This document shows, piece by piece, positions 5,339 through 12,620 of a DNA stretch of 64,000 nt. A program made the translations under genes and the position numbers. Each line of letters begins with the position of its first letter. The stretch's first letter is position 1. Below the pieces are notes generated by a model. That model saw only the letters and a list, made by a program, of their open reading frames with translations, searched no databases and had not been told where the DNA came from. The stretch is from the NCBI RefSeq assembly GCF_013167455.1, contig NZ_CP038328.1. One strand, 5' to 3'. The stretch comes from Escherichia coli O157:H7. Lineage in GTDB: Bacteria; Pseudomonadota; Gammaproteobacteria; Enterobacterales; Enterobacteriaceae.

Positions 5339-5365
5339 GGTGCACAAATGTGCACCTTTTTTTTG
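5339..5365 (+). terminator. Rho-independent terminator after tdcG
   Basis: GGTGCACA-AA-TGTGCACC hairpin followed by T8 run. Confidence 0.65.
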
Positions 5366-9384: not shown

Positions 9385-10281
9385 ATGGCCAAAGAAAGGG
9401 CATTAACGCTGGAAGCACTACGGGTTATGGATGCGATCGATCGCCGGGGCAGTTTTGCGGCGGCAGCGGATGAGCTGGGACGCGTGCCTTCCGCACTTAG
9501 CTACACCATGCAAAAACTGGAAGAAGAGCTGGATGTGGTGCTGTTTGACCGCTCGGGCCATCGCACCAAATTCACCAATGTCGGGAGGATGTTGTTGGAG
9601 CGAGGGCGCGTTTTGCTGGAAGCCGCAGATAAACTGACTACTGATGCGGAAGCTCTCGCGCGCGGTTGGGAAACGCATCTCACCATTGTGACCGAAGCGC
9701 TGGTACCGACACCTGCCTTTTTCCCGTTAATCGACAAACTGGCGGCAAAAGCCAATACCCAACTGGCAATCATCACAGAAGTGCTGGCGGGGGCGTGGGA
9801 ACGGCTGGAGCAGGGGCGGGCGGATATTGTTATCGCGCCGGATATGCATTTTCGTTCCTCGTCGGAGATCAACTCGCGCAAGCTCTATACGTTAATGAAC
9901 GTCTACGTTGCCGCGCCTGATCACCCGATTCATCAGGAGCCGGAACCGTTATCTGAAGTGACGCGTGTGAAATATCGTGGAATTGCGGTGGCGGATACCG
10001 CTCGTGAGCGCCCGGTGTTGACTGTACAGCTGCTGGACAAACAGCCGCGCTTAACGGTGAGCACGATTGAAGATAAACGTCAGGCATTACTGGCGGGGCT
10101 TGGCGTGGCGACGATGCCGTATCCGATGGTCGAAAAAGATATTGCGGAAGGGCGGTTGCGTGTCGTCAGCCCGGAATCGACCAGCGAGATCGATATTATT
10201 ATGGCCTGGCGTCGTGACAGTATGGGGGAAGCGAAATCCTGGTGTCTGCGGGAAATTCCCAAACTTTTTAACGGAAAATAA
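9385..10281 (+). CDS. yhaJ: LysR-family transcriptional regulator YhaJ
   Basis: 298 aa; N-terminal HTH (LRVMDAIDRRGSFAAAADELGRVPSALSYTMQKLE) typical of LysR family. Confidence 0.9.
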   Translation: MAKERALTLEALRVMDAIDRRGSFAAAADELGRVPSALSYTMQKLEEELDVVLFDRSGHRTKFTNVGRMLLERGRVLLEAADKLTTDAEALARGWETHLTIVTEALVPTPAFFPLIDKLAAKANTQLAIITEVLAGAWERLEQGRADIVIAPDMHFRSSSEINSRKLYTLMNVYVAAPDHPIHQEPEPLSEVTRVKYRGIAVADTARERPVLTVQLLDKQPRLTVSTIEDKRQALLAGLGVATMPYPMVEKDIAEGRLRVVSPESTSEIDIIMAWRRDSMGEAKSWCLREIPKLFNGK

Positions 10282-10297
10282 TATTTATTATTGTTAA

Positions 10298-10321
10298 TAA
10301 AAAGGGGCGAAATATCGCCCC
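10298..10321 (-). terminator. Rho-independent terminator of yhaI
   Basis: GGGGCGA-AATA-TCGCCCC hairpin with T-run on the minus strand; lies between convergent yhaJ and yhaI. Confidence 0.55.
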
Positions 10322-10331
10322 AATTCTAAGA

Positions 10332-10688
10332 TTAATTTGAACCAAACTTCGGATCGTTTCCGTAACGATTGCTGCCAGAAGTACCTTCTGTGCAGAAAAA
10401 AACCAGAAGCACGAGCCAGCCAATAAACGGAACAAAAAAGAGCAAGGCCCAGGCACCTGAACGGTCGGTATCGTGTAAGCGACGGATAGCAAGCGCAAGG
10501 ACGGGAAGGAAGGTTGCCAGCAAATAAAGCATAGACAGATATGGAAGCTCCAGACCTAAAATCAATTGAATGACATTGATAATAGCGCCGACGATGGCGT
10601 TAATCAGAGTAAACATCCAGTACTCTTTACGACGTGCGCGACCAGAGAAACCAACATAATTTTTTAATACGGATAAATACCACTGCAT
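10332..10688 (-). CDS. yhaI: DUF805 inner-membrane protein YhaI
   Basis: 118 aa; shares YLxVLKNYVGFxGRARRKEYWMF and RRLHDTDRS motifs with adjacent yhaH. Confidence 0.85.
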   Translation of the reverse strand: MQWYLSVLKNYVGFSGRARRKEYWMFTLINAIVGAIINVIQLILGLELPYLSMLYLLATFLPVLALAIRRLHDTDRSGAWALLFFVPFIGWLVLLVFFCTEGTSGSNRYGNDPKFGSN

Positions 10689-10882
10689 AAAAACATCCCT
10701 TTAATTAAAAGTGACGAAAGTCTATTCCGGGTATTGTGTAAATGCTATTCGTATCTTTCTTTTTCGGATGTTATAAAGGTTTTGATATTTAAGATAAATA
10801 CATGGTTATTTTTATAGGTAATTTATATAACGACATTGAAATATTTTAAATAAACATTAGTAAATTATTCATTCATCAACAT

Positions 10883-10914
10883 GATGATAAAAGCCGGATG
10901 AGTCAGACATCCGG
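10883..10914 (-). terminator. Rho-independent terminator of yhaH
   Basis: CCGGATG-N7-CATCCGG hairpin followed by CTTTTATCAT on the minus strand, 15 nt downstream of the yhaH stop. Confidence 0.5.
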
Positions 10915-10928
10915 CGAGCAGATTTGTT

Positions 10929-11294
10929 TTAAGGTTCCAGTTTTGGATCAGGTCCAAAGCGGTTTTCGCCTGGCGTACCCGCCTGGCAGTTAAAGACGAT
11001 GATAATAAGCCAGCCGATAAACGGGATTAAGAATAGCAGTGCCCACCACGCCGAGCGGTCGGTGTCGTGCAGGCGGCGGAACTGAACTGCCCACCACGGT
11101 AAAAACACCAGAATACCGTAGATTGTCGTCAGGATGCCTTCGCCACCAGCGCGTTGCCAGCCTAACATTTTATCCAGCAGCCCCAGCACGAACGTAAAGA
11201 TGATGTTGACCAGAATAAACATCCAGTACTCTTTGCGCCGCGCACGACCCCGGAAACCGACATAATTTTTTAGTACTTTCAGATACCAGTCCAT
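10929..11294 (-). CDS. yhaH: DUF805 inner-membrane protein YhaH
   Basis: ORF track starts at a TTG (11315); ATG at 11294 gives MDWYLKVLKNYVGF..., 121 aa as in K-12. Confidence 0.85.
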   Translation of the reverse strand: MDWYLKVLKNYVGFRGRARRKEYWMFILVNIIFTFVLGLLDKMLGWQRAGGEGILTTIYGILVFLPWWAVQFRRLHDTDRSAWWALLFLIPFIGWLIIIVFNCQAGTPGENRFGPDPKLEP

Positions 11295-11435
11295 TTTTGC
11301 CTCAATTTTGCTCAATCACTTGTTTTTAAAGCAGCAAATTAAGAATAGACGTGAATGAAATGGCAGTAAATATTCGTTCAAGGAATTAATAAAGTGCTGT
11401 GAAGGCGCGCTAAGACTGATGACAAGCGCAAAATT

Positions 11436-11533
11436 GCCAGATGCGCTACGCTTATCTGGCCCGCGCGGTCATTGCAACATATTGAATATAAAAGTTTTGT
11501 AGGTTTGATAAGGCGTTCATGCCGCATCCGACA
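11436..11533. repeat. REP palindromic elements
   Basis: GCCAGATGCGCTACGCTTATCTGGC and GTAGGTTTGATAAGGCGTTCATGCCGCATCCGACA REP-type palindromes. Confidence 0.65.
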
Positions 11534-11585
11534 TGAACAACATGCACTTAGCTAATTATCAGAGGCACCTCGTAAGGTGCTTTTT

Positions 11586-12572
11586 TTAACCTAAGCGAAC
11601 ATCTCGTCCATGCGGTTCATCGAGATCCTGCCACGGACCAATTGAAATAATCCGCGTAGGGTTGATGGTCTTATGACTGCGGAAGTAATGATTACGGATA
11701 TGATCGAAATTGACTGTTTCGGCAATTCCCGGCATCTGGTAGATATCACGCAGGAAGCCATACAGATTAAGGTAATCGCTGATGCGGTGCTTATCACACT
11801 TGAAGTGGGTCACATACACTGGATCAAAACGGACCAGCGTGGTCCACAGGCGAATATCGGCTTCGGTTAGCTGGTTGCCGGTCAGGTAACGATGCTGACC
11901 TAAAATCTGTTCCAGTCGCGCCAGCGATTCAAACACTTTCTCCACCGCTTCGTCGTAGGCTTGCTGGCTGGTGGCAAAACCAGCTTTATACACGCCGTTG
12001 TTAACGGTGTCATAAATCCAGCCGTTAAGTTCGTCAATTTTCGTTTGCAGGGCTGGTGGGTAGTAATCACCCGCTTTCGCGCCCAGCGCATCAAACGCGG
12101 TATTAAACATGCGGATGATTTCTGCTGATTCGTTGCTGACGATGGTGTGGTTCTTTTTGTCCCACAGCACGGGAACAGTAACTCGTCCGCTGTAGTGTGG
12201 ATCGGCGTGGAGATAAAGCTGATACAAAAATTCATGTTGATAGAGCGTGTCTCCGGTTGCTCCCGGAAAACTGTCATCAAAGGTCCAGCCGTTTTCCAGC
12301 ATCAGCGGGTTCACTACGGAAACGGAAATAAACGGTTCCAGTCCTTTGAGTTTGCGCATGATCAGCGTGCGGTGCGCCCACGGGCAGGCGAGTGAAACAT
12401 AGAGATGATAACGATCTTTCTCTGCGATAAAACCGCCTGTGCCAGTGGGGCCAGGAGCGCCATCGGCAGTGAGCCAGTTACGAAATGCGGAAGCTGAACG
12501 TTGAAATTTACCGCCGGTAGATTTGGTATCGTACCAGGTGTCATGCCAGACGCCGTCAATCAGTTGACCCAT
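11586..12572 (-). CDS. yqjG: Glutathionyl-hydroquinone reductase (Xi-class GST) YqjG
   Basis: ATG at 12572 (MGQLIDGVWHDTWYD...) with GGAGGA RBS; CPWAHR active-site motif present; 328 aa. Confidence 0.9.
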   Translation of the reverse strand: MGQLIDGVWHDTWYDTKSTGGKFQRSASAFRNWLTADGAPGPTGTGGFIAEKDRYHLYVSLACPWAHRTLIMRKLKGLEPFISVSVVNPLMLENGWTFDDSFPGATGDTLYQHEFLYQLYLHADPHYSGRVTVPVLWDKKNHTIVSNESAEIIRMFNTAFDALGAKAGDYYPPALQTKIDELNGWIYDTVNNGVYKAGFATSQQAYDEAVEKVFESLARLEQILGQHRYLTGNQLTEADIRLWTTLVRFDPVYVTHFKCDKHRISDYLNLYGFLRDIYQMPGIAETVNFDHIRNHYFRSHKTINPTRIISIGPWQDLDEPHGRDVRLG

Positions 12573-12591: not shown

Positions 12592-12620
12592 AAAAACGAG
12601 GAGCTTCCTCCTCGTTTTTT
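12592..12620. terminator. Bidirectional hairpin terminator downstream of yqjF
   Basis: AAAAACGAGGAG-CTTC-CTCCTCGTTTTTT perfectly symmetric hairpin flanked by A and T runs. Confidence 0.6.

Follow-up and report, generated by a model that had tools for sequence, protein, structure and literature searches.

Why should a hairpin that lies just past the stop codon of a gene carry its run of T's on the opposite strand? The question is raised by a small palindrome at the end of yqjG, in a stretch of 64,000 nucleotides of Escherichia coli O157:H7 DNA (contig NZ_CP038328.1), hereafter called the window. The gene order around this hairpin is yhaJ on the plus strand, then yhaI, yhaH, yqjG and yqjF, all on the minus strand. 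The region matches E. coli O157:H7 genomes at 100% identity. The minus strand of the window is the plus strand of K-12, in which yqjG occupies 3251024-3252010 and yhaH 3252304-3252669. A first-pass annotation had described the hairpin as a terminator oriented for the opposite strand, which would be either weak or bidirectional for yqjG, or else the end of an unannotated plus-strand transcript coming from the yhaH-yqjG spacer. The answer proposed here, from comparison of sequences among genera, is that the hairpin is quite probably an ancient intrinsic terminator of yqjG itself, and that its strand reversal is only apparent. The elements of the site are as follows:

12572 (ATG) to 11586 (stop), minus strand: yqjG coding sequence, glutathionyl-hydroquinone reductase (open reading frame list and K-12 annotation)
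11586-11588, minus strand: TAA stop codon of yqjG, overlapped by the T-run (sequence and K-12 annotation)
11581-11587, plus strand: T7 run, which is an A7 run (UAAAAAAA) on the yqjG strand (sequence)
11565-11580, either strand, since it is palindromic: terminator hairpin GCACCT-CGTA-AGGTGC (sequence, folding and species comparison)
11554-11564, minus strand: yqjG-sense tail CUCUGAUAAUU, a poor U-tract with 3 U in its first 8 positions (sequence and tail score)
10929-11294, minus strand: yhaH, a DUF805 inner-membrane protein gene, co-directional with yqjG and downstream of it

On the plus strand the site reads ...ttatcagag GCACCT cgta AGGTGC TTTTTTT aacc..., with a stem of six perfect pairs, four of them G-C, a CGTA tetraloop and, immediately behind, seven T's. 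In RNA form this gives GCACCU-CGUA-AGGUGC and then U7, the stem-loop and U-tract of an intrinsic terminator. The hairpin and T7 of the first-pass annotation are therefore where they had been placed (11565-11580 and 11581-11587), and the reported overlap with the stop codon is real, two T's of the run being the complement of the AA in the yqjG TAA. Read on the yqjG strand, the run becomes an A7 made of these two A's and a five-nucleotide linker, AAAAA. It leads into the hairpin, which starts 5 nt past the stop; CTCTGATAATT (11564-11554) lies on the far side of the hairpin. The U-tract on this strand is indeed as poor as had been noticed: the tail score, a T-weighted statistic of our own, is 2.3 in O157 and 2.9 in K-12, as compared with 4-5.7 in orthologues that carry TTTTTT, and it reaches 5.4 on the plus strand. 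This falls below what a yqjG-sense intrinsic terminator would call for. As for the extent given to the element, 11556-11588, only its start needs correction, as it clips the minus-strand tail by 2 nt.

The stem itself varies slightly within the species. In K-12 and most E. coli the stem is longer by a G-C pair (GGCACCT...AGGTGCC, 7 bp), whereas in O157:H7 and strain HS a G has been lost at the stem base (GGCACC to GCACC; window positions 11564-11565 as compared with K-12, ~2519 in locus L001). On the yqjG strand the stem energy goes from -11.0 kcal/mol in K-12 (7 bp) to -7.7 in O157 (6 bp), while on the plus strand of O157 a G-U pair partly makes up for the lost G (-9.3). Folded with its surroundings, the plus-strand RNA (43-mer) reaches -12.9 kcal/mol with a z-score of -3.0, and 2 of 200 shuffled sequences fold as well; the corresponding values for the minus-strand RNA (48-mer) are -9.6 kcal/mol and -1.2.

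An automated promoter and terminator scan gave no report of the hairpin and its T7 (11561-11587). To judge from the minimum free energy structure, this miss likely arose because the stem is extended through A-T and G-T pairs (AGAG:TTTT), which uses up four T's and leaves fewer than five in the tail. Scans of this kind may systematically overlook terminators whose 5′ flank is rich in A and G. The site search was therefore replaced by a strict scan of our own, asking for six or more perfect stem pairs, four or more of them G-C, a loop of 3-8 nt and at least 6 T's in the next 7 positions. Over the 64-kb window it returned seven distinct sites (14 overlapping registers), against a mean of 0.42 registers and a maximum of 2 over 100 dinucleotide shuffles, an enrichment of about 30-fold. 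The combination of hairpin and T7 is not a chance match. The same scan picked out a strong canonical terminator-like site elsewhere in the window, at 5339-5356 on the plus strand (GGTGCAC-AAAT-GTGCACC followed by T8).

To whom, then, does the hairpin belong? The family provides the answer. In a sample of 80 species-level Enterobacteriaceae loci, fetched with YqjG as the query, a hairpin stands 4-8 nt past the yqjG stop in nearly every species, and its stem differs from one to another (GGCACC, GGCGTCC, GGGCATCC, GGGCGCG). By genus, the stem is GGCACC(C) in Escherichia and Citrobacter, GGCGTCC in Salmonella, GGGCATC(C) in Pseudocitrobacter, Pluralibacter, Yokenella and Enterobacter, and GGGCGC(G/C) in Kosakonia, Klebsiella and Raoultella; the Escherichia hairpin, GGCACCCTTCG(T/C)GGTGCC, is almost identical to those of Citrobacter. 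When 37 sequences were submitted to RNAalifold, in an alignment that is imperfect because stem lengths vary, three of the five consensus pairs had double-sided compensatory changes (A-U 18, G-C 8 and C-G 4 for the first; C-G 20, U-A 8 and U-G 8 for the second; G-C 15, A-U 9 and G-U 9 for the third).

The tails point the same way. Fourteen species have a yqjG-strand tail that reaches a score of 4 or more (TTTTT or longer); in Enterobacter, Pluralibacter and Yokenella it is TTTTTT. In Citrobacter and Salmonella TTATTAATT directly adjoins the hairpin as its tail, which reads TATTAATT and scores about 3.2. A strong sense U-tract is not universal, the tails of Kosakonia and Klebsiella being weak too (AAATTATTT and AATTAATT, score about 2). 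On the antisense side, no run of at least five T's occurs in any non-Escherichia species of the 80-species sample, in which a few antisense tails score 3.0-3.7. Positional conservation, compensatory changes and sense T-tails in many genera together argue that the hairpin is, in origin, the intrinsic terminator of yqjG.

What became of the sense tail in Escherichia can be followed in the spacer beyond the hairpin, where three further elements come into play:

11393-11563, boundaries approximate: Escherichia-specific block of ~170 nt with two inverted REPs, a BIME (spacer lengths, alignment and Rfam)
11383-11392, minus strand: TTATTAATTC, the ancestral T-rich hairpin tail of Citrobacter and Salmonella (alignment)
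11342-11370, minus strand: yhaH promoter-like block, with -35 TTTACT (11370-11365), a 17-nt spacer and -10 TATTCT (11347-11342) (invariant alignment columns)

The synteny of yqjG and yhaH is conserved; the spacer between them, 104-128 nt long in most genera, measures 280-291 nt in Escherichia. In an alignment of 12 sequences, the extra Escherichia DNA falls between the stop-proximal hairpin and a motif, ATTAATT(C), whose ATTAATT columns are invariant or nearly so, and which runs on into a conserved block, TTTAC(T/C)-N17-TATTCT. TTATTAATTC, adjacent to the hairpin in Citrobacter and Salmonella, is found in Escherichia ~170 nt away from it, directly upstream of the yhaH promoter. Within the extra DNA, Rfam gives weak REP-type naRNA4 matches at 11502-11538 (plus) and 11426-11461 (minus), whose E-values of 0.5-2 leave them far under the gathering scores. 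The hairpin is not part of a REP element, as it is also present in genera without the insertion and the Rfam REP matches lie elsewhere. The boundaries of the insertion are uncertain because MAFFT placed the outgroup hairpin at the distal end of the insert. This placement suggested a duplication, with a decayed further copy of the hairpin at the yhaH-proximal end; it was rejected since local alignment of the stop-proximal unit with the rest of the spacer stays at chance level (in five Escherichia genomes, 277-1999 of 2000 shuffles do equally well).

The conserved block can probably be read as the yhaH promoter, because a Salmonella yhaH reporter fusion begins at -43, that is, 7 nt past the -10 hexamer (PMC5137417, Table 1); ATTAATT stands where an UP element would lie and may play that role. 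The near-invariant stretch extends across genera over 11342-11392 (minus), from ATTAATT through TTTAC(T/C) and the 17-nt spacer to (C)TATTCT, and a Salmonella transcription start at -43 fits it. The C ahead of the -10 hexamer, along with the higher YhaH level seen in stationary phase (PMC5137417), suggests a candidate sigma-S-type promoter.

The yqjG-yhaH spacer appears to be a recurrent site of insertion in more than one genus. Four Citrobacter loci (L013, L014, L021 and L017) have their own larger insertions, with spacers of 208-860 nt as compared with ~122 nt, and in these same loci the stop-proximal hairpin is disrupted or replaced. Insertion sequences have also landed here independently in E. 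coli: in KOr024 (L004, ~1437-1510) an IS26 end abuts sequence inside the hairpin (junction TAAAAAAAGG / GGCACTGTTGCAAA), in MEW (L091, 330-420) IS200C sits directly against the A-run and yqjG is no longer adjacent, and in KY 1497 (L003) IS1 takes the place of yhaH. Given these events, the junction between stop codon and hairpin may be a preferred target.

If the insertion explains how the sense tail went missing, where does the antisense T7 come from? As the linker between stop and hairpin, Citrobacter has TTTACACA, E. albertii CCACA, two further Escherichia species ACAAA and one more TAAAA; AAAAA is found only in E. coli, and in every E. coli sampled. Seen from the plus strand, the sister Escherichia species thus have TTTGT, TGTGG or TTTTA at this place, and the T7 is confined to E. 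coli, which is not the conservation expected of the U-tract of an established antisense terminator. Beyond the hairpin, E. albertii has TTATATTGTT and E. coli TCTGATAATT. Within E. coli, the 71-nt segment is identical to that of K-12 in 3,383 of 5,426 genomes, and the A7 and the stem are kept in all the variant classes examined. The A7 is essentially fixed in the species, an observation as compatible with a neutral sweep as with selection, be it for an antisense function or some other. The A-run also creates a dnaX-type -1 slippery heptamer, A AAA AAG (in TAA AAA AAG, 11580-11588, minus strand), codon-aligned and with the hairpin next to it; as it lies past the stop codon it was set aside as a coincidence, and it would be relevant only upon read-through of that stop.

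Taken together, these comparisons suggest the following history. In the ancestor of the Enterobacteriaceae, a hairpin 4-8 nt past the yqjG stop would have had a T-rich tail on the yqjG strand (TTTTTT or TTATTAATT) that extended into the yhaH promoter downstream. The insertion of some 170 nt with two inverted REPs would then have parted hairpin and tail in the lineage of Escherichia. The tail would have remained with the yhaH promoter, and the inserted sequence now following the hairpin would later have drifted to UCUGAUAAUU. Lastly, two C-to-A changes in the linker in the E. coli lineage (ACACA to ACAAA to AAAAA) would have joined the AA of the stop codon to form A7. One insertion and two substitutions would thus make the hairpin look reversed in E. 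coli. The alignments establish that the hairpin is conserved and covaries, where the insertion lies, and that the A-run is restricted to one lineage; what E. coli now has is probably a weakened sense terminator whose antisense competence, strong by its sequence, is incidental. The statement that it is oriented for the opposite strand accordingly describes the present sequence well, though not the origin of the element or its probable role.

Could the reversal have been selected instead? Pervasive bidirectional terminators are an established concept in E. coli, reportedly described by Ju and colleagues in 2019 (see also bioRxiv 10.1101/2022.10.23.513370). The A7/T7 could have been fixed to halt plus-strand polymerases entering yqjG head-on, whether these come from yhaJ read-through, from the REP block or from stray initiation within the yhaH promoter, which is AT-rich. 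By its sequence the plus-strand element is canonical (stem -7.7 to -11.0 kcal/mol, T7, score 5.4), it is one of only seven strict sites in 64 kb, and its A7 does not change in any of the E. coli variants examined. The hairpin at the other end of yqjG (12597-12614), with T-runs on both strands, would moreover leave the gene bracketed by plus-strand-competent terminators. For such a role, however, polymerases have to arrive, and there is little sign of them. A promoter scan found no sigma-70-like site on the plus strand at 9500-11700, and thus none within 2 kb upstream; the nearest plus-strand gene, yhaJ, has its own primary 3′ end mapped at its own hairpin; and two curated sets list no K-12 minus-strand 3′ end at 3252009-3252015. 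The T-run is missing from sister species of Escherichia in which the gene order is the same, so that the role would be both recent and dispensable. A selected insulator of this kind is unlikely.

Two curated sets of 3′ ends, both thresholded lists that cover few conditions, were read with the same question in mind. The curated Term-seq tables of Adams 2021 contain a 3′ end after yqjK (3250409, plus strand of K-12) and none at yqjG or yhaH on either strand. The TRS 2023 tables place termini after yqjK at 3250409 (plus), after yhaH at 3252711 (plus) and after yhaJ at 3253270 (minus), and none between 3250409 and 3252711 (PMC10687069). Neither list has a K-12 minus-strand end at 3252009-3252015, although thresholds of this kind could hide a rare transcript. 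TERMITe 2025 and SMRT-Cappable-seq 2018 have no end at the yqjG hairpin, and a literature search returned no paper naming yqjG and yhaH together. Plus-strand 3′ ends at about 11587 were the observation on which the first-pass annotation had made its antisense proposal depend; they are absent, within the thresholded Term-seq and TRS lists only.

That proposal amounts to a dedicated terminator for an unannotated plus-strand gene (a small RNA, an antisense RNA or a small protein) starting in the spacer. Open reading frames do end just before the hairpin: that of O157, with 27 codons (11472-11555), stops 8-10 nt ahead of it, and that of K-12, with 45 codons, stops at the same place. Its length is 48 codons in another strain, and it is absent from L006 and E1V33. 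Since start codon, frame and length are unstable between strains, a small plus-strand gene in the REP region was rejected; strain comparison yielded no conserved plus-strand frame in the spacer, and the frames seen there are unstable translations of REP sequence. Rfam has no family above threshold in the region. Its weak full-length match to isrD (11543-11587, plus), at 19.8 bits and E = 0.69, stands far below the gathering score of 37 and spans only the hairpin and the T-run, and was discarded. With no promoter-like site, no listed 3′ end, an upstream spacer that is itself a REP/BIME insertion and a T-run specific to E. coli, a gene of this kind is highly improbable. The idea of a plus-strand transcript from the spacer thus lacks support, yet thresholded lists fall short of a strict refutation. 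Of the options first put forward, it is the weak or bidirectional terminator for yqjG that gains ground, through the stop-proximal hairpins of the orthologues, the sense T-tracts of many genera and the separation of hairpin and tail by the REP/BIME.

On the yqjG strand too, the Adams 2021 and TRS lists have no 3′ end at the hairpin, perhaps because yqjG is too poorly expressed in the conditions used. What, then, does the element do today? If it is the weakened ancestral terminator, yqjG transcription would now end inefficiently at the hairpin, and the remaining transcripts would either read into the BIME and yhaH or be ended by Rho or trimmed by 3′-exonucleases back to the hairpin and REPs. 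Any plus-strand polymerase that did arrive would be predicted to stop efficiently at ~11585-11588, incidentally shielding yqjG from head-on transcription; this competence would be a by-product and not the reason for which the element exists. The converse, that E. coli has newly made an antisense-facing terminator through two linker mutations after the REP/BIME insertion had split a composite of terminator tail and promoter UP element and released the hairpin from its former role, and that its main work is to shield yqjG, is decidedly unlikely. If true, it would offer a traceable case of reversal of terminator polarity.

REP elements are known to stabilise upstream mRNA, and BIMEs can reportedly attenuate transcription, according to work attributed to Espeli and colleagues in 2001. 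The hairpin may have ceased to terminate at all and serve with the REPs only to block 3′-to-5′ exonucleases, yqjG transcription ending further on, by Rho-dependent attenuation in the BIME or at the yhaH terminator (K-12 3252711). The poor sense U-tract would agree with this, as would the lack of a mapped sense 3′ end at the hairpin, the next plus-strand terminus of K-12 being the one that follows yhaH. If 3′ ends were efficiently protected, on the other hand, expression of yqjG should leave stable Term-seq ends at the hairpin base, and the lists have none. Such a loss of terminating activity is doubtful, and would in any case be compatible with the origin as an ancestral terminator, from which it differs on present activity alone.

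How does the ancestral terminator, as now modified, compare with known systems? It resembles a canonical intrinsic terminator by its G+C-rich stem of 6-7 bp, its tetraloop, its position 5 nt past the stop, its conservation with compensatory changes, and the T-run that follows the hairpin at many orthologous yqjG loci. It departs from one in E. coli, where the T-run is on the strand opposite yqjG, the tail in the direction of the gene reads UCUGAUAAUU, and a mapped 3′ end is lacking from the maps. With bidirectional terminators it shares a single palindromic hairpin that can form in the transcript of either strand, flanked on one side by an A-run. It is however asymmetric, with one good T-tract and CTCTGATAATT on the other side, it lies between co-directional and not convergent genes, and the strand with the good T-tract has no transcript evidence. 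The symmetric bidirectional type does exist nearby, in the yqjF-yqjG hairpin (12597-12614, CGAGGAG-CTTC-CTCCTCG), with T6 on the plus strand and T5 on the minus strand, here also between co-directional genes. The two inverted REPs immediately downstream, in the yqjG-yhaH spacer, recall the REP/BIME elements of 3′ UTRs; unlike these, the yqjG hairpin occurs in genera without the insertion.

The closest parallel is the hairpin shared by yhaI and yhaJ (10304-10321), which is also one-sided: T5 lies on the yhaI strand, and the yhaJ strand has A5 upstream and a poor tail, AAUUCUAAG. There the genes are convergent and the yhaJ terminus has been mapped, whereas the yqjG hairpin has a mapped end on neither strand. 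In the TRS data the primary yhaJ 3′ terminus falls 9 nt past the stem, at K-12 3253270 (hairpin at ~3253270-3253300), despite that poor tail (PMC10687069). A one-sided hairpin can thus define a 3′ end in the “wrong” orientation, which makes some residual yqjG-sense termination at the 11565 hairpin plausible.

In the end, the yqjG hairpin is an unremarkable representative of a familiar class, its history unusual yet explicable, and is of little importance beyond annotation. It does carry a caution for terminator prediction and for the calling of antisense RNAs: a T-run on the “wrong” strand beside a stop codon need not signal a hidden transcript, and in this case the comparison across genera settled the apparent reversal at once. 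It also provides a clean and datable example of a REP/BIME insertion that parted a terminator hairpin from its U-tract, the latter having been kept, it appears, because it overlaps the yhaH promoter. As such, it could be of use for studying how terminators decay, how transcription reads through between co-directional genes, and what effects REP insertions have.
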